From positions 224,001 to 288,000 of the forward strand of contig CAVRAO010000008.1 in NCBI GenBank assembly GCA_963719035.1: a stretch of 64,000 nt of DNA, read 5' to 3'. Under the pieces are notes generated by a model that ran no database searches, was not told the origin of the DNA, and saw only the letters and a list, made by a program, of their open reading frames with translations. The DNA is from Methanobacteriota archaeon (GTDB lineage: Archaea > Halobacteriota > Bog-38 > Methanoflorentales > Methanoflorentaceae). Both the position numbers and the translations under genes were made by a program. Of the stretch, positions 37,550 through 46,033 are shown one piece after another (within the stretch, counting starts at the first letter, position 1; each line of letters begins with the position of its first letter).

Positions 37550-37620
37550 GCGGTAGTGGTGTAGAGGCAGCACAAAGGCTTCCCAAGCCTTTAACCCGGG
37601 TTCGAGTCCCGGCTACCGCA
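37550..37620 (+). tRNA. tRNA-Gly(CCC)
   Basis: Acceptor GCGGTAG/CTACCGC; anticodon loop TTCCCAA; GTTCGAG T-loop. Confidence 0.95.
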
Positions 37621-38355: not shown

Positions 38356-39864
38356 ATGTTAAAAATAGACGGCTTAAATGCGCTTACGTATGGGATACTT
38401 GACGCTGGCGTCGGAGTTGCTACAGGAGTTATAGGGTATCCTGTCACTGAAATCATCGACAATTTAAAACCTATTTGGATATTCACAGCTAATGAAAAGG
38501 TAGCGCTCGATTTGGCGTTAGGAGCCTCAGCATCAGGCACTTCATCTGTTTTTATAGCCAAACACGTTGGATTAAACGTGGCAGCAGACTCTTTGGTCAC
38601 AGCAGCAACCCACGGCGTTGGTGCCGGGCTGGTCATAATCGCAGGAGACGACCCCGGCGCTAAATTATCGCAAAATGAGCAGGATTCTAGATACTACGGA
38701 AAGTTAGCGGAGATCCCAGTATTCGAGCCACATAGCGCCAGAAATGCGTATGATTGTGCTTTATGGGCTTTTAAACTATCTGAACAACTCTCAGTGCCAG
38801 TAATAATGAGGGTGACAAGCAGGCTCTTGAACGTGGAGGGTTATGTTGAGCGCGTACCCGTTGAGTCGCTTCCCGTTGTAAGAATAGGAAAAGGCGTCTG
38901 GGACCTTACACTTTTAGGAAGGCATCAAAACCTTCTTAAAAACAAATATCCCAAGATGCTCGAGTTTGCTGAGACAACAGAACTAAATGAAGAAAACGGC
39001 ACAGGCGTTATCGGAATTATTTCCACGGGCTTTGCATCTACTGTGGTCGATGATGCAATCGACAGACGAAGTGATTTTGCGCACCTAAAACTTGGAATAG
39101 TCAACCCGTTATGTCAGCGGCGAGTTGATTCATTTCTAAAAGATCACGACCGCGTGCTAGTCATTGAAGAAGGTGCACCGCTCGTCGAGGAGTCGATCCG
39201 CGGTAAAGTCCTCGGCAAGCTCTCAGGACATCTGCCACGCTTTGGAGAACTCACGCTAGATGACGTCAATCGAGCGTTGAATTACGTTGATGCTGATTGC
39301 ATCTCCACACAATTTGACGTCGAAACACTCGAGAGCAGACACTACAAAGCAGAGATCTGTGAAGACTGCCCCTTTTTGCCGTTCTATCACGCTCTTGCCA
39401 AAGTCGACGAGATGATTGCCGGAGATCTGGGCTGTATCATAAGGTCGGCAAGTCCGCCATTAAACGTTATCGACGTGGCTTATTCTCTCGGCTCAGCAAT
39501 TGGAGTGGCTTCTGGATTTGAACATGGTGGCATAGCAGTGTTAGGAGATTTCGCGTTCTTACACAGTGGCGTTGTCGCGTTAATAAGCGCGCTAGTCTTT
39601 AAGCGCAGCGTCAAGGTATTTGTGCTCGAAAATCGAATTTCAGCTATAACAGGGGGACAGCAAACACCTGTGGTCTCCGACTTGGTCGGCGCACTATGTA
39701 GAAACTACGGAGCCAGCTATAAAATAGTGAATGCAATAGAGATGGGCGAAAAATCGTTCGAGGACCTCCTGCGAGCAACGAAGAACTCTACAGGAGCCCT
39801 AGTTGTCGTTGTCAGGGCCTCATGCCCCAAATACAGCAAGCCTCCTCGAAATGCCGAAGCTTAG
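38356..39864 (+). CDS. IorA-like TPP-dependent 2-oxoacid enzyme lacking the C-terminal ferredoxin domain
   Basis: NEKVA, KHVGLN, SQNEQDSR, CEDCP, GDLGC, GDFAFLHSG; ends at SCP; no iorB in window. Confidence 0.85.
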   Translation: MLKIDGLNALTYGILDAGVGVATGVIGYPVTEIIDNLKPIWIFTANEKVALDLALGASASGTSSVFIAKHVGLNVAADSLVTAATHGVGAGLVIIAGDDPGAKLSQNEQDSRYYGKLAEIPVFEPHSARNAYDCALWAFKLSEQLSVPVIMRVTSRLLNVEGYVERVPVESLPVVRIGKGVWDLTLLGRHQNLLKNKYPKMLEFAETTELNEENGTGVIGIISTGFASTVVDDAIDRRSDFAHLKLGIVNPLCQRRVDSFLKDHDRVLVIEEGAPLVEESIRGKVLGKLSGHLPRFGELTLDDVNRALNYVDADCISTQFDVETLESRHYKAEICEDCPFLPFYHALAKVDEMIAGDLGCIIRSASPPLNVIDVAYSLGSAIGVASGFEHGGIAVLGDFAFLHSGVVALISALVFKRSVKVFVLENRISAITGGQQTPVVSDLVGALCRNYGASYKIVNAIEMGEKSFEDLLRATKNSTGALVVVVRASCPKYSKPPRNAEA

Positions 39865-41022
39865 TCAGGTGTACATCACACCTCGAACGATGTCCTCGAG
39901 CTCCTCCTGAGAGACCGATTTCTTTGTTTCACAAACGCGTTTTACATCGTCAAGAATTTGGCACAGCTCAGCGCGGGTCGGTCTATAGCCTAGCTGTGCG
40001 ATCACGTACTGGAGTGCTTTTTTTCCTGTATGCTTGCCGATGACGATTCGTCTCTTGTTGCCTACTAAGTCAGGTGAGAACAGTTCGTACGTCTCTGGCT
40101 CCTCTAGCACTGCAGCAACGTGTATACCCGACTCGTGTGAAAACGCATTCAAACCTACTACCGGCTTATTTTTCGGCAGGCGAAAGCGTGAGTGATATTC
40201 GACTATTTTCGACAAATCCATCAGTTTTGTGAGGTCGTACGAGTCAACGCCAAACTGGACACGCAGCGCCACAAGCAACTCCTCGAGCGGAGTGTTTCCA
40301 ACTCGCTCCCCTATTCCGTTGACAGTTGTGTGCAACTGAAACACCCCAGCTTCTGCTGCGGTGATAGTGTTGGCGACAGCCATGCCGAGGTCGTTGTGAC
40401 AATGAATACAAAACGGTATATCGACGACCTTTTTCATTTCAGTTACTAGGTCGTAGCACGATGCCGGCCTGAGGGCGCCAACCGTGTCTGCGATGCTGAC
40501 GTAGTCGGCCCCGTGGTCTTCACCCTGTTTAAAAAAACGCTTAAGTACCTCTGGATTGGTTCTAGTCGCGTCTTCTGCCGCAAATCGCACTATTAAGCCA
40601 TGTTCTTTTGCATACTCTAGCGTCGAAAGGGCACACTCCAACATCTCATCAAATGTGCGATGATACTTGTGTTTGAGATGCAGAGCGGAAGTGGCCATGA
40701 AAAGCCCCACAACGTCCACATCGCAGTCCAACGCTTCATCTATGTCGTGAAAAATCGCTCTCGAAAGACAGCATACCTTAGTGTTTAACCCCAAATTCGC
40801 AATTTTTTTTACCATCGCCTTTTCTTTTGAAGAAACTGCGGGAAATCCAGCTTCGATGATCTCGACCCCAATCGAGTCCAGCTTCGTGGCGATCTCAACT
40901 TTTTCTTCCATACCAAAAACGACGCCAGGCGCTTGTTCGCCGTCACGCAGTGTAACGTCACAAATTTCAATGTTGTGAATACCAGTTCTCGGCAATGTAA
41001 AAGGCGATTCAAAGTTACCCAT
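39865..41022 (-). CDS. aksA: Homocitrate synthase family protein (AksA-like)
   Basis: DVTLRDGEQ, HCHND, GIGERVGN, HESGIH; no LeuA regulatory domain. Confidence 0.8.
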   Translation of the reverse strand: MGNFESPFTLPRTGIHNIEICDVTLRDGEQAPGVVFGMEEKVEIATKLDSIGVEIIEAGFPAVSSKEKAMVKKIANLGLNTKVCCLSRAIFHDIDEALDCDVDVVGLFMATSALHLKHKYHRTFDEMLECALSTLEYAKEHGLIVRFAAEDATRTNPEVLKRFFKQGEDHGADYVSIADTVGALRPASCYDLVTEMKKVVDIPFCIHCHNDLGMAVANTITAAEAGVFQLHTTVNGIGERVGNTPLEELLVALRVQFGVDSYDLTKLMDLSKIVEYHSRFRLPKNKPVVGLNAFSHESGIHVAAVLEEPETYELFSPDLVGNKRRIVIGKHTGKKALQYVIAQLGYRPTRAELCQILDDVKRVCETKKSVSQEELEDIVRGVMYT

Positions 41023-41213
41023 AGTCAACCTGAATGACTTCGATAAGCACACTCACAGTCTGCACTTAAATAGATTACTTGCCCGACTTGTGGAGTTTGG
41101 AGGCTTGAGTTAACGTCAAGATCAGCTTATTATGCACAAACCAAGCGGGCATAGTTTAGAAGATCCATAAATTGATAATATCGAGAGCGGCAAATAGTAC
41201 TGGTGAATAAATC

Positions 41214-42467
41214 TTGGATACTCAAAGAACTATTAGCGAGAAGATACTGTCTAACGCTTCGGGAAAACCAGCGAGAGCTAATGACTTTGTTTTAGCGCAG
41301 GTTCACGCAGCAATGGCTCACGATGGTACCAGCGTACTCGGAGTGCGAGCATTTGAAGCGATGGGCGCGGATTCTGTTTGGGACCCAAATAAGATCGCTA
41401 TAGTCTTTGATCATATTGCCCCGGCCAGCACGGAGGCAGCAGCAACCCTTCAGCATACGATCCGCGCGTGGACAAAACGTCAGGAAATTACTCACTTCTT
41501 CGATGTTGGCGAGGGAATATGCCATCAGCTCATGGTCGAGCACGGCCTTGCCCTGCCAGGCACCGTAGTCGTTGGGGCGGATTCACACTCGTGCACGTAC
41601 GGAGCTCTGGGAGCCTTCGCGACAGGCGTCGGTGCAACAGACATTGCCGAGGTTTTTGCAACGGGAACGTTGTGGTTCAAAGTGCCTGAAACGCTCAAGA
41701 TTGTCATTAATGGAAAACTCCGCGCTTATGTTGGCGCAAAAGATGTCATTCTCAAAATCGCAGGAATGATTGGTGCCGACGGTGCGTCGTATAAAGCACT
41801 CGAGTTCTACGGTTCGACGATCGCTGACATATCGATGGACGGGCGGCTCTCAATTAGCAACATGGCAATCGAAGTTGGGGCGAAAGTGGGAATCATCCCG
41901 CCAGATCGAAAAACCATTGAGTACCTCGACCGAATTCAACCTCCTTTGAGTTTTACGCCGTGCTATGCTGATGAGGGCGCTGCTTACACAGATGAGCTCT
42001 ACTTTACAATTGATGATTTGGGACCTCAGGTCGCGTGTCCTCACGAAGTGGATAACGTGAAAGACGTAGAAGATGTAGCGGGAACGCCGATCGACCAGGT
42101 CTTCATCGGTTCGTGTACGAACGGACGTTTTGAAGATCTAAAAGAGGGCGCAACCATACTACGCGGCGAGACGGTCGCCGTGCGAACGATCATCGTTCCA
42201 GCGTCGAAGCACGTTTTGCTAACTTGCATACGGACTGGTGTCTTAGAGACATTGATCGAAGCTGGTGCCACTATTTGTAGTCCAGGATGTGGACCGTGTC
42301 TCGGTGCGCAAAACGGCGTTTTGGGACACGGAGAAGCTTGTCTCTCAACTTCCAACAGAAACTTCAAGGGCAGAATGGGTGTAGATGGGCTAATCTACCT
42401 TGCGTCCCCGGCAACAGCCGCAGCAACAGCACTCGCGGGCGAAATCGCTGACCCACGACAGCGCTAG
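41214..42467 (+). CDS. aksD: Homoaconitase/isopropylmalate isomerase large subunit
   Basis: HDGT, DSHSCT, GSCTNGR, CGPC, SNRNF. Confidence 0.8.
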
Positions 42468-42501
42468 ATCTTGTCGAGTACTATCTCATAATCCTAACTT
42501 T

Positions 42502-42837
42502 TTAAATGCTGGAAGATCTCTTGATCTCCTCAATCTGTTCAATCAAGATCTTTTCAATGGCGTCTAGCAAATACTCGAGCGAGGGACTTCTGACTGTGAA
42601 TTTTCTAGGGATTCCTTTGTAGGTCACGGTGTCGCCTGCGTCAATTGAAATCATTGGTTCTCGGACGACGAGATCTGCTTTGAACTCGCTTGCGGCGATT
42701 TTTTCAATTTGGAGGTCCCACATTTTTTCATCAATTTCTTGTTCGATTTCTTGCGCCAGATGCTTCGCCATGTGAGTCAAAAACGCAATTTTTTGATTAA
42801 CTAGGTATTCTTCTTGTAAGGACAACGCCACTGACAT
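42502..42837 (-). CDS. Hypothetical acidic protein
   Basis: Clean ORF with AGGA upstream; no recognised motif. Confidence 0.55.
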   Translation of the reverse strand: MSVALSLQEEYLVNQKIAFLTHMAKHLAQEIEQEIDEKMWDLQIEKIAASEFKADLVVREPMISIDAGDTVTYKGIPRKFTVRSPSLEYLLDAIEKILIEQIEEIKRSSSI

Positions 42838-42956
42838 AATCCTGCATTGTTTCGGAACTATTAAACACTTCTTCAGTCTTTTAGCGCTCATACAGATATG
42901 TTCGCCCCCCACAATCCCCGCATACTTTATATCGCTACGTTTTCAATTAGTCTATA

Positions 42957-43463
42957 ATGCTCATTAGGGGAAACGTGTGGAAATACGGTGACAATGTTAA
43001 CACTGATCTGATAATACCTGGCAAATATTTGAGAACAACTAACATCAGCGTTTTCGCAGCGCACGCAATGGAGGGGATTGACAGAAATTTTTCACCCCGT
43101 GCTGGAGACATAATAGTTGCCGGCAAGAACTTTGGCTGTGGATCATCCCGAGAGCAAGCGGTTCTCGCGCTGAAACACGCTAAGATCGGATGCGTCGTTG
43201 CGATATCATTCGGTCGAATCTTTTTCAGAAATGCAATCAATATAGGTCTGCCAATAGTCGAAGCTAACGTCGTTGATTTTGTCCACAAGGGAGATGAGAT
43301 TGAAGTCGATTTTTCCGCAGGGCTTGTGAAAACGCGCAATAAGGTCGTTCAAGGTTCGAAGCTTCCTAGATTCTTACAGGAAATCCTCGAAGAGGGGGGC
43401 CTAGTTGAATATAGACAGAGACATCCGCGTGGCCCCAGCCTGGAGGAATCTGATGTTTCGTAG
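42957..43463 (+). CDS. aksE: Homoaconitase small subunit
   Basis: [13 protein letters not shown] (YLRT loop), [11 protein letters not shown]. Confidence 0.85.
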
Positions 43464-43502
43464 ACGTAGGCGCGTAGCTAAGCAGCTTTTCCTTAGAACT
43501 AT

Positions 43503-44456
43503 ATGAAAATCGCCGTTGCTCAAGGAGATGGAGTTGGGAAGGAGATCATACCGCCGTGTATCGAGATTCTAAATCTGCTGTTAAAGGGCCCAAAATTCAT
43601 TGATTTGGATATAGGTTACTCCAAATGGGTAAGAGAAGGCGCGCCTATAACCGATTTAGACATTGATTTGATCAAACAAACTGATTGTATGCTTTTAGGT
43701 GCAGTAACCACTGCTCCCGGGAGCAGCGTCGTCGTCCGACTAAGAAGAACATTTGATCTTTTTGCTAATCTTCGGCCTTTTCGATCGTACGATTTAACCC
43801 CTCATAAATTGAACATGACAATAATCAGAGAAAACCTTGAAGGATTATATGCAGGCATAGAAGAAGTTTCAGTTGATATTGCAGTCACTAAACGTGTGAT
43901 TACTCGCTATAATACGGAAAGACTCGCTTCCTTCGCTAGCGCGTTACAGAACGTAAAAAAAATTACAATAGTTCACAAAGCAAACGTACTTAAATCAGAT
44001 GTCCTCTTTCGAGATGTCTGCGCGCATGTGTTAGATGAGCGCCGCATCTCTTACGATGAAATGTACGTTGATACCGCGGCATACAATCTAATTAAACACC
44101 CAGAGATTTTTGACCACATCCTGACATCGAATTTGTTCGGTGATATCTTGTCAGATGAGGCTGCTGGACTTACAGGCGGCCTCGGACTTTGTCCAAGCGC
44201 TAACATCGGGCCTGACTATGCAATTTTTGAGCCAATACACGGATCTGCACCTAACATTGCTGGGCGTGGCATAGCAAATCCAATCGGGGCAATACTAAGT
44301 GTTAAAATGCTTCTTGAGTGGGCCGGTGAACAAAGTAAAGCTATCCTGCTAGACAACGCAGTCAAGAAGACTATAGAAAAAGGCGTAATGACCCCTGATC
44401 TTGGCGGTATGAACTCGACAAAAGAAGTGACGCGATCGATAATAAGTTGTCTCTGA
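43503..44456 (+). CDS. aksF: Homoisocitrate/isopropylmalate dehydrogenase family
   Basis: GDGVG.E, RENLEG, HKANV, NLFGDILSD, HGSAP. Confidence 0.78.
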   Translation: MKIAVAQGDGVGKEIIPPCIEILNLLLKGPKFIDLDIGYSKWVREGAPITDLDIDLIKQTDCMLLGAVTTAPGSSVVVRLRRTFDLFANLRPFRSYDLTPHKLNMTIIRENLEGLYAGIEEVSVDIAVTKRVITRYNTERLASFASALQNVKKITIVHKANVLKSDVLFRDVCAHVLDERRISYDEMYVDTAAYNLIKHPEIFDHILTSNLFGDILSDEAAGLTGGLGLCPSANIGPDYAIFEPIHGSAPNIAGRGIANPIGAILSVKMLLEWAGEQSKAILLDNAVKKTIEKGVMTPDLGGMNSTKEVTRSIISCL

Positions 44457-44463
44457 TGATCAA

Positions 44464-45318
44464 ATGATTTTTCCTGAACACTGTATGTATGTTGCAGTCA
44501 GAGACTGCGACGATAAGACAACACGACCATCGGCCGGTGAAGCTATCTATTTCTCTTCTCGCTATATCGTGTTATTTTGGCAAGGACAGGCTGCAATCTA
44601 CGAAGTCAATTCAAATGGAGACGGACTACTACGATCCATCTCGGTTGTCAACGAGATTGCAGGCTTTGCCGAGACTTTTGTGTACGAACAGAAAGTCGAC
44701 ATCTTCAACAGAAGCAGGTTAATTACAGAAGCAAAGCGTTTGTGCAAGCCACCAATAAAAGCTGTAATCTTTCAAGGATTTGATCTTCATTGGACGTTTG
44801 TCTACGATCCGGACTTGAACAGCGTCATAGAGATCGAGGTTTTTGACATCACCCCCCCAGACCCACCCTATCTCGTCACGCTTATCAAGAAACTTGAAGA
44901 TGCAGGCATTTTTGGGGACCTGTCCGTTCAGTTCAAGCCGATCGTACAAGATCTTAGAAGACTTAATGCAGGTACTATATTCCCTTGTTCAGCGTCAGGC
45001 ATTGGATCGAGCCATCTCAACAGGCCCGGAGTTCAAATTGAGGAGGATTCGGTGCTTGTGGGATGTGACATTTCAAGACAAGTACTCGAAGCGCGATTTC
45101 CAGCGTCAAACTTCGAACACGAGAATATATGTCCAACAAAAACCATCAGGCCGCGCAAGCCTTTTATCGCAAAATGTTGCAGGTCAGCAAGAGTTGGACC
45201 TATTGAACTGTTTGGCATACAAGGATACATCGTTCATTGGGGGGCAAACCCGTACGAAGTCGTCTCTGCTATTAGGGATCTCATAACGCGATATACTGAC
45301 GGAGTCAAGCAGGAGTAG
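44464..45318 (+). CDS. Cys-rich hypothetical protein (DUF7714-like)
   Basis: FPC, VGC, CP, CCR, VHWGA; starts 7 nt after the aksF stop. Confidence 0.7.
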   Translation: MIFPEHCMYVAVRDCDDKTTRPSAGEAIYFSSRYIVLFWQGQAAIYEVNSNGDGLLRSISVVNEIAGFAETFVYEQKVDIFNRSRLITEAKRLCKPPIKAVIFQGFDLHWTFVYDPDLNSVIEIEVFDITPPDPPYLVTLIKKLEDAGIFGDLSVQFKPIVQDLRRLNAGTIFPCSASGIGSSHLNRPGVQIEEDSVLVGCDISRQVLEARFPASNFEHENICPTKTIRPRKPFIAKCCRSARVGPIELFGIQGYIVHWGANPYEVVSAIRDLITRYTDGVKQE

Positions 45319-45341
45319 CTCAGCCCTTCTGCTTAGAGAAA

Positions 45342-45442
45342 TGCGGAGGGAGGGATTCGAACCCACGAATGCCTTCGCAACAGGATGTCTCAAACAACAG
45401 TTCTTAAGTCCTGCGCCTTTGACCTGGCTTGGCTACCTCCGC
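45342..45442 (-). tRNA. tRNA-Leu(TAA) with 16-nt intron at 37/38
   Basis: GCGGAGG/CCTCCGC; CTTAAG|AACTGTTGTTTGAGAC|A; BHB helix CTTA/TGAG; long variable arm. Confidence 0.93.
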
Positions 45443-45465
45443 TGTAAGTTGACTAATCCATAAAC

Positions 45466-45473
45466 ATATAAAA
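45466..45473 (-). promoter_or_regulatory. TATA box of tRNA-Leu
   Basis: TTTTATAT on the minus strand ~25 nt upstream of the tRNA. Confidence 0.6.
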
Positions 45474-45939
45474 GCTTATTTTGGCAACTCGTTTTGCTGT
45501 GAGAGGTTGACCTGCTGAGAGCGTTTTCTAATACGCCCGTCCAAGAGCCTCTCTATCCAACGCAAAAACGCCGTCGAAAGTGACGTTCAACTGTCCTCCG
45601 GCTTTGTGATCCAGCTCTCGAACTGCTGCTCGCCACACCTGATAGTTCCATTTTCTATAGGGGCGTCGATCCACAATTCTAATAGCACGTGAAATAACAT
45701 AAATATGTGTTTGATACGGTTCAATCGGAAGCGTACTAGTTTAACCAGTTCCGTGCTTCCCGACCGTGAGCGAGGATTCGACAAATGATAGCGTCCACAT
45801 TGTGCGTGCCATTTGACGAAGTTCAATCATTCAGCTCTTTTGATGATGCTTCAAGGATCGTCCACCTATACATGTTTCAGGGTTAAAAAAGACGCACTAC
45901 GGATTATGACAGGCCGGATGTAACGACAAACTGATAGGA

Positions 45940-46033
<94 letters not shown>

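Follow-up and report, generated by a model that had tools for sequence, protein, structure and literature searches.

We analysed a 64-kb window (the whole stretch of 64,000 nucleotides, positions 224,001 to 288,000 of contig CAVRAO010000008.1 in assembly GCA_963719035.1) from an archaeal genome, G000, which measures 2.19 Mb and is 91% complete. Six genes occupy positions 38356–45318 of the window and, on balance, probably serve the synthesis of coenzyme B. The first encodes a short IorA-like protein of 502 residues with a thiamine pyrophosphate (TPP) site and ligands for a [4Fe-4S] cluster (38356–39864, forward strand), a candidate 2-oxosuberate decarboxylase on the evidence of its domains, motifs, clade and gene linkage. 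There follow genes for an AksA-like homocitrate/(homo)n-citrate synthase (395 residues, 39865–41052, reverse strand), an AksD/HacA-like homoaconitase large subunit (417 residues, 41214–42467), an AksE/HacB-like small subunit (168 residues, 42957–43463) and an AksF-like homoisocitrate dehydrogenase (317 residues, 43503–44456), the last three on the forward strand. The sixth gene starts 8 bp past aksF and encodes a DUF7714 protein (284 residues, 44464–45318, forward strand), a homolog of XcbA and a candidate thioaldehyde reductase that would form 7-mercaptoheptanoate. The TPP gene and aksA are convergent and meet tail to tail with 0 bp between them (39864/39865).

The locus had been singled out in an original prediction, which saw the four aks-like genes together and an IorA-like gene abutting aksA. 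Both observations are upheld by the open reading frames (ORFs) and their Pfam and NCBIfam matches. The DUF7714 gene, which lies inside the interval described there, was omitted.

Curated NCBIfam cut-offs were mostly missed by the aks-type proteins. The AksA-like protein has HMGL-like and HCS_D2 domains and falls under the cut-off for all LeuA, NifV and LysS models. The AksD-like protein passes hacA_fam (548.9 bits, cut-off 385.7) and stays below HacA_Meth (505.9, cut-off 550). The LeuD/HacB-type small subunit scores 175.2 and 177.6 bits against HacB_Meth and HacB2_Meth, under the cut-off of 230, and passes the subfamily model LEUD_arch (205.2, cut-off 108.95). The AksF-like protein, with an Iso_dh domain, is under the cut-off for LEU3_arch (366.7 bits), AksF2_Meth (314) and AksF_Meth. 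As had been predicted, the small subunit carries YLRT, within PGKYLRT. This is the specificity motif of the methanogen homoaconitase small subunit, and all 49 small subunits found adjoining DUF7714 have either YLRT (46) or YLRS (3). In the literature searched, which omits most subscription journals (a scope that holds for every literature search mentioned below), we found no paper pairing YLRT with homoaconitase. The assignment of AksA, AksD and AksF is made because their genes are clustered with a YLRT subunit in a genome that carries mcrA.

Further properties of G000 bear on the pathway concerned. The genome has no match to LysW (TIGR01206) at its 91% completeness, encodes the diaminopimelate (DAP) decarboxylase LysA (496 bits) and possesses mcrA, and the cluster is therefore of the coenzyme B rather than the lysine type. 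The aminoadipate lysine pathway, which the original prediction had entertained as an alternative, is thus not borne out. Of the three LeuCD-like sets in the genome, only that in the window has YLRT in its small subunit, the others having YLVL and KYKY. As a separate observation, a LeuA/AksA-like gene at G000:C2:192170-193667 consists of two adjoining ORFs of 379 and 143 residues, perhaps as the result of a frameshift; both are about 40% identical to the AksA of the window.

The short IorA-like protein

The 502-residue protein has the Pfam domains POR_N and TPP_enzyme_C. Its best NCBIfam match is IOR_alpha (TIGR03336), at 318.9 bits, half of the curated cut-off of 650.9, and the match spans profile positions 7–536 of 595, with the C-terminal ferredoxin part missing. 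Elsewhere G000 encodes a canonical full-length IorA (609 residues, 761.5 bits to IOR_alpha) with an IorB-type ORF downstream, and an alignment of the two proteins gave 31.7% identity. Like IorA, the short protein has Pyr, middle and PP domains in one chain and retains the GD...N motif for TPP, the catalytic Glu and the segment SQNEQDSR with the conserved 2-oxoacid-binding Arg. The four Cys ligands of the proximal [4Fe-4S] cluster are also kept, C335, C338, C360 and C490 corresponding to C368, C371, C396 and C539 of the canonical protein. The canonical tail with nine more Cys, which holds the 2x[4Fe-4S] domain, has no counterpart. Among 15 members of the clade, E47, R112, D398, N426, C335 and C360 are invariant, and C338 and C490 occur in at least 90%.

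The TPP motif, the Cys ligands and the missing C-terminal domain are therefore as originally described, and the same is true of the missing partner, as tblastn detected no IorB-like sequence in the window (best E 2.7). The altered loop, given as GVIGYP in place of GYPGTP, is a real difference (GVIGYP occupies residues 24–29, and TGVIGYP is aligned with the canonical SGYPGTP), but its Ile is not shared by the clade. It is restricted to near relatives of the window protein, and the clade consensus is GVPGYPxT.

The IorB-type ORF that follows the canonical iorA (G000:C2:228009-228600) covers only positions 57–171 of the 173 in the POR profile. Stop codons break the frame upstream of it, and it may be frameshifted or mis-assembled.

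Structure comparisons gave a mixed picture. A sequence search of solved structures found no match to the TPP protein at E ≤ 0.001. The top Foldseek matches of its predicted model (predicted local distance difference test score, pLDDT, 77.8) were ALS, KivD and PDC, with template modelling scores of about 0.5 but a root mean square deviation of about 18 Å. These structural matches are to the non-oxidative TPP 2-oxoacid decarboxylases (PDC/KivD/ALS fold group), whose three-domain Pyr–middle–PP fold is without Fe-S; by sequence the protein is kin to IorA and has the Fe-S ligands. Prediction of a complex between the TPP protein and DUF7714 scored 0.00, a value that is uninformative either way.

In a search of 1.84 billion representatives with the TPP protein, the nearest was P0026 (64% identity, 741 bits), followed by nine representatives at 370–332 bits and one at 281; canonical IorA-type proteins appeared from 261 bits downward. 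Some relatives are shorter still. This mini form of about 390–430 residues, found in six families, is without most of the middle domain and keeps PGYPVT, the CxxC...C...C pattern and the TPP motif. In a maximum-likelihood tree built by a quick search only, 23 short, 6 mini and 2 'other'-labelled rows were split from 32 canonical ones with a support of 100 in the Shimodaira–Hasegawa-like approximate likelihood ratio test, and the IorA of G000 itself fell on the canonical side. Short, mini and canonical forms all retain the four ligands of the proximal [4Fe-4S] cluster. Public annotations name members of the clade IorA. No long fused form of the protein was found at E ≤ 1e-80, which is weak evidence.

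A few of the matches to the short protein contain in-frame stops: a single TAG in two genomes of genus g2 in the family of the window genome (G020:C3:9178-10656 and G022:C1:221017-222495), and TGA or TAA in several genomes of two further families (f2 and f29 below).

The DUF7714 protein

The product of the sixth gene matches PF24830 over its full length (261.1 bits, gathering score 25), and its model has a pLDDT of 90.4. It also matches the NCBIfam XcbA family NF052538 (73.8 bits, E 1.4e-20) over profile positions 36–290 of 293. A tblastn search of plasmids with the DUF7714 protein returned seven records, among them plasmids of four bacterial taxa: Xanthobacter, Mycolicibacterium chubuense NBB4 (two plasmids), Nocardioides JS614 and Methylocystis (two plasmids). 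The Xanthobacter, M. chubuense NBB4 and Nocardioides JS614 strains are alkene oxidisers that use coenzyme M. The Xanthobacter match is Xaut_5070 on pXAUT01, directly upstream of phosphosulfolactate synthase and two lyase-family genes, a position that identifies it as xcbA. In hhalign, DUF7714 and XcbA were matched with a probability of 98.9% (E 3.4e-17, 241 columns), and the five invariant Cys of DUF7714 (C175, C201, C223, C238 and C239) are all aligned to Cys of Xaut_5070. From these sequence comparisons, DUF7714 is a homolog of bacterial XcbA.

XcbA is described as a [2Fe-2S] protein that makes coenzyme M by reducing sulfoethanethioaldehyde, and for which no homology to any known protein was found (PMC9457059). 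The XcbA of Xanthobacter autotrophicus Py2 is a full-length homolog of DUF7714 and likewise belongs to a cluster for a thiol cofactor. The two differ in that identity is about 25%, the invariant His of the DUF7714 motif VHWG is Pro in XcbA, and the archaeal gene is linked to aks (coenzyme B) genes whereas xcbA is linked to phosphosulfolactate synthase. The presumed substrate of DUF7714 would be a C7 carboxylate thioaldehyde in place of sulfoethanethioaldehyde.

With the DUF7714 model as query, Foldseek retrieved nothing from the PDB at E ≤ 0.001, a search of solved-structure sequences gave only weak, repeat-driven ubiquitin matches with no passing stretch, which were not used, and a protein atlas gave no usable match. 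We found no paper that names DUF7714.

Distribution and gene neighbourhoods

The two genes were profiled in 201 genomes of the phylum, including G000, each at least 85% complete; the counts per family exclude G000, and thresholds were E ≤ 1e-85 for the short form and E ≤ 1e-40 for the mini form of the TPP protein. DUF7714 is present in 87 of the 201 genomes (86 and G000). It occurs throughout 12 families, all of which bear mcrA, and is absent from the remaining 17. These families are f1 (10/10), f2 (26/26), f3 (9/9), f9 (10/10), f12 (9/9), f14 (5/5), f20 (6/6), f22 (2/2), f23 (3/3), f24 (4/4), f27 (1/1) and f29 (1/1). Within them mcrA was found in 81 of the 86 genomes, the shortfall being one genome each in f1 (9/10), f3 (8/9), f9 (9/10), f12 (8/9) and f14 (4/5), with full counts in f2 (26/26), f20 (6/6), f22 (2/2), f23 (3/3), f24 (4/4), f27 (1/1) and f29 (1/1).

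The short TPP form (51/201) and the mini form (31/201) lie without exception inside these DUF7714-bearing families, and 82 of the 87 genomes with DUF7714 have one or the other. No family has both. The short form belongs to f1 (10/10), f2 (24/26), f9 (10/10), f20 (5/6) and f29 (1/1), the mini form to f3 (9/9), f12 (9/9), f14 (4/5), f22 (2/2), f23 (3/3) and f24 (4/4), and f27 has neither (0 for both). Set against mcrA, the clade is thus confined to mcrA-bearing families with DUF7714. The names attached to homologs are Methanoperedens, Methanosarcinales, Methanothrix, Methanoregula and 'Halobacteriota archaeon' metagenome-assembled genomes (MAGs).

Gene orders were obtained by tblastn of the six proteins of the window against fetched loci. 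Families f1 and f9 have the order seen in the window, with TPP, a convergent AksA and then AksD-AksE-AksF-DUF7714. A different order, MMP11-radical SAM-TPP(mini)-AksA-AksD-AksE-DUF7714-AksF on a single strand, where MMP11 is methanogenesis marker protein 11, is shared by f3, f12, f14, f22, f23 and f24. In f2, f20 and f29 the order is AksE-DUF7714-AksF. The TPP and AksA ORFs overlap in locus L141, and one 43%-identical MAG record (L013) shows only TPP, AksA and AksD.

In 51 of the 82 genomes the TPP and DUF7714 genes share a contig and are no more than 7 kb apart: in all 11 of f1 (G000 included), in nine of the ten of f9, the tenth being at a contig end, and in all 31 of the six mini-form families. 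Linkage of the clade to aks genes is conserved in 8 of the 11 clade-bearing families and absent in three. In the loci examined IorB was never adjacent to a member of the clade, the neighbours being AksA or MMP11. DUF7714 adjoins AksE and/or AksF in 44 of 44 distinct genomes (the window, and sets of 2, 17 and 30 loci, with 6 genomes shared between the last two). No other gene is linked to aks as tightly, and the evidence from context is stronger for DUF7714 than for the TPP enzyme; the XcbA-like protein also provides a separate biochemical lead.

In one soil metatranscriptome run, 5% of the sampled words were present. The contigs of this run, 90–99% alike and derived from relatives, lay on parts of the TPP gene, aksA, aksD, the gap between aksD and aksE, and aksE–aksF, with none on 43633–45500. 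As the library may contain DNA and gives no expression level, the run was used neither for expression nor for silence of DUF7714.

Candidate late steps of coenzyme B synthesis

Coenzyme B is 7-mercaptoheptanoyl-threonine phosphate, and no methyl- or alkyl-coenzyme M reductase can do without it. One source takes its synthesis through 2-oxosuberate and a semialdehyde and names only Aks-type enzymes (PMC3087415), and in 2025 the pathway was still called unknown (PMC12068725). In the literature searched we found no assignment of a 2-oxosuberate decarboxylase or of the late steps.

Taken together, genomic context and homology point to a coenzyme B cluster with the TPP enzyme as 2-oxosuberate decarboxylase and with DUF7714 responsible for forming the thiol group of 7-mercaptoheptanoate, a reading that we consider somewhat favoured. 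AksA, AksD/E and AksF would elongate 2-oxoglutarate to 2-oxosuberate, as is established for their family. The IorA-like protein appears reduced to its TPP site (Pyr and PP domains), the Arg that binds 2-oxoacids and the proximal [4Fe-4S] cluster, with the ferredoxin domain and the CoA-binding partner lost. Most likely it decarboxylates 2-oxosuberate on TPP to 7-oxoheptanoate rather than to an acyl-CoA, since in the absence of a CoA-binding subunit the aldehyde would be released. Sulfide could then add to 7-oxoheptanoate to give a thioaldehyde, which DUF7714 most likely reduces to 7-mercaptoheptanoate. The retained cluster may be structural, may relay electrons to DUF7714 or may be the sign of an oxidative reaction. 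The same logic is followed in coenzyme M synthesis by the sulfopyruvate decarboxylase ComDE, which converts a 2-oxoacid to an aldehyde with TPP before it is thiolated, although ComDE belongs to a different TPP family without Fe-S ligands and a ComD-type gene is found elsewhere in G000.

A genome with mcrA and without LysW, a clade with no adjacent IorB and a conserved linkage to aks genes form the pattern expected of a coenzyme B enzyme that acts on a 2-oxoacid. In this respect the genomic tests partly support the original prediction of a repurposed IorA acting as 2-oxosuberate decarboxylase, and none of their results contradicts it. For the steps that follow 2-oxosuberate, no better candidates are available at present than the TPP enzyme and DUF7714.

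Several findings weigh against this interpretation. The TPP gene is convergent with aksA in the window and hence not co-transcribed with it, and linkage to aks and to DUF7714 is absent in f2 (0/24), f20 (0/5) and f29 (0/1). At all 12 aks-unlinked loci of the short form (L012, L014 and L015 from Methanoperedens-type records, and L126–L134 from f2, f20 and f29) an ORF of about 300 residues lies just upstream of the TPP gene with a 4-bp overlap. Its product is MMP11 (TIGR03280, 323–361 bits, cut-off 255.8), with a TiaS kinase-type domain, and the primary functional partner of the TPP enzyme could therefore be MMP11. All four [4Fe-4S] ligands are kept, a feature no less compatible with electron transfer than with simple decarboxylation, and the missing ferredoxin domain does not by itself imply non-oxidative chemistry. 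The DUF7714 protein (P0003) remains under the curated XcbA cut-off (73.8 bits against 150). A competitor for its role has also been put forward: the coenzyme M synthase of Methanosarcina acetivorans is MMP16, and the authors of that work suggest that MMP16 or L-ASST may serve coenzyme B as well (PMC12068725). MMP16 (ComF) and L-ASST, which are of the COG1900 type, would resemble DUF7714 in making a thiol from an aldehyde and sulfide; they are unrelated to it in sequence, and MMP16 in G000 is unlinked to aks.

As a general solution the pair also fails. Families f4 (mcrA in 4/32), f7 (3/3), f10 (15/27), f11 (3/4), f17 (2/2) and f28 (1/1) bear mcrA and have neither gene, and f18 gave one sub-threshold match to mcrA. 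Among 14 control genomes DUF7714 was found in M. acetivorans only and not in Methanocaldococcus jannaschii; that control and the global search of representatives were the sole coverage of methanogens from other phyla. The TPP clade is missing from some of the mcr-bearing archaea, which excludes it as a universal enzyme. The two genes would instead be a solution peculiar to certain lineages, in families that include relatives of Methanosarcina, Methanothrix, Methanoperedens and Methanoregula, and not one for all methanogens. The aks neighbourhoods of f4, f7, f10, f11 and f17 contained no alternative decarboxylase candidate, their neighbours being RtcB, SufBD, amidase, VIT and Yip1, and no TPP-enzyme homolog was found beside aks genes in clade-lacking lineages by tblastn with the short and mini forms or by Pfam on selected neighbours.

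It is conceivable, though we judge it unlikely, that the TPP enzyme is still an oxidoreductase, which would decarboxylate 2-oxosuberate or another 2-oxoacid oxidatively, hand the electrons to an external acceptor (ferredoxin or DUF7714) by way of its one [4Fe-4S] cluster and yield an acyl product. Throughout the clade the four proximal Cys are conserved together with the catalytic Glu and the TPP motif, and in sequence the clade is closest to IorA and not to the decarboxylase family. Moreover, ferredoxin is still reduced by two-subunit archaeal 2-oxoacid:ferredoxin oxidoreductases (OFORs) that have one cluster and lack a ferredoxin domain. Against this, no CoA-binding partner of the IorB or gamma type stands beside any clade member examined, and no BioB or BioF above cut-off is present in G000 to use a pimeloyl product. 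Labelling work has also established the aldehyde oxidation level in the coenzyme B route. The requirement for an aldehyde rather than an acid is likewise found in PMC3087415. A role of the TPP enzyme in biotin or pimelate metabolism was given low weight on the same absence of BioB and BioF.

Less likely again, in our estimation, is that the TPP enzyme works with MMP11, and with the adjacent radical SAM protein, in another methanogen-specific process, its proximity to aks reflecting co-regulation of genes related to cofactors or methyl-coenzyme M reductase. The overlapping arrangement at the 12 aks-unlinked loci speaks for this, as do the presence of MMP11 (with or without the radical SAM gene) upstream of the TPP gene in three of four f9 loci, of MMP11 followed by the radical SAM gene in all six mini-form loci, and of the MMP11–radical SAM pair in f11 and f4, where the TPP gene is missing. 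In G000 MMP11 is encoded on another contig (L159, G000:C2:273705-277007) with a HycI-like protease, TfuA and YcaO, the last two being McrA thioamidation genes. However, the conserved 2-oxoacid-binding Arg of the TPP enzyme calls for a 2-oxoacid substrate, which the Aks enzymes make, and eight families, with two different gene orders among them, have the TPP gene next to aksA. MMP11 could itself be a late enzyme of coenzyme B synthesis, in which case this explanation would merge with the one preferred above. The radical SAM gene that follows MMP11 in many families has a weak LipS2-like match (60 bits), and the literature searched contained neither a paper that names MMP11 nor a published function for it.

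A threonine synthase gene, thrC (296 bits), is a conserved neighbour about 7–8 kb upstream of the MMP11–TPP pair in the Methanoperedens-type loci L012, L014, L015 and L134; it is notable only since coenzyme B contains threonine phosphate.

The enzyme is very unlikely to be an ordinary alpha subunit of an indolepyruvate or aryl-pyruvate oxidoreductase with IorB and ferredoxin encoded elsewhere. IOR_alpha is its best NCBIfam match and public annotations say IorA, but the match reaches half of the cut-off, G000 has its separate canonical IorA with an adjoining IorB-type ORF, and the clade forms a branch of its own, limited to mcr-bearing families and with a substrate-motif region unlike the canonical one. 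A role of the TPP enzyme and DUF7714 in coenzyme M synthesis was rejected, since ComD and MMP16 are encoded elsewhere, 5.4 kb apart on another contig and unlinked to aks, and the two genes are therefore not needed for that cofactor. That the Aks-like genes serve the aminoadipate (LysW) route to lysine, which also starts with homologs of homocitrate synthase, homoaconitase and homoisocitrate dehydrogenase and whose LysS and homoaconitase models are among the matches, is hardly credible given the missing LysW, the presence of LysA and mcrA and the restriction of the DUF7714 partner to mcr-bearing families, and was rejected.

Returning to the candidate coenzyme B route, we also considered a broader module, which we put forward as a doubtful proposal and as a single whole. 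Here the late half of coenzyme B synthesis in class-II methanogens and archaea of the anaerobic methanotrophic type ANME-2 would be carried out by up to four proteins: the TPP/[4Fe-4S] enzyme, DUF7714, MMP11 and the neighbouring radical SAM protein. The OFOR-derived TPP enzyme would decarboxylate 2-oxosuberate, its cluster possibly relaying electrons, and DUF7714 would make 7-mercaptoheptanoate. MMP11 and the radical SAM protein might deliver sulfur, or else help to attach or phosphorylate threonine at the expense of ATP.

Of coenzyme B synthesis, only the half that elongates the 2-oxoacid has genes assigned to it. The cluster and its relatives offer two clonable candidates for the next two steps, the TPP/[4Fe-4S] enzyme for decarboxylation and the XcbA-like protein for thiol formation. 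MMP11 is a third lead. As Methanosarcina, which is genetically tractable, has all three, they are directly testable. In metagenomes the candidate genes could also mark coenzyme B synthesis, and they could be targeted to inhibit methanogens specifically. If the proposed roles are correct, an OFOR alpha subunit can do without the modules for CoA binding and ferredoxin, and a single family of thiol-forming enzymes is common to bacterial coenzyme M and archaeal coenzyme B synthesis.

The remaining features of the locus are minor. An antisense ORF of up to 136 residues (42502–42912, reverse strand), with no Pfam match, lies in the gap of 490 bp that separates aksD from aksE. It is kept in two relatives of the same family, with 75% identity over 93 residues in L016 and 60% over 97 residues in L011; the gap itself is kept in f1 and absent in f9. 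The cluster is bounded by tRNA genes at 37550–37620 (forward strand) on the left and 45342–45442 (reverse strand) on the right. The left one lies between aIF-2 and the TPP gene, together with an archaeal histone-fold gene (PF00808, 37796–38026, reverse strand). On the right the tRNA matches at 45342–45442 and 45940–46032 each exceed 71 nucleotides, and they may therefore contain introns.

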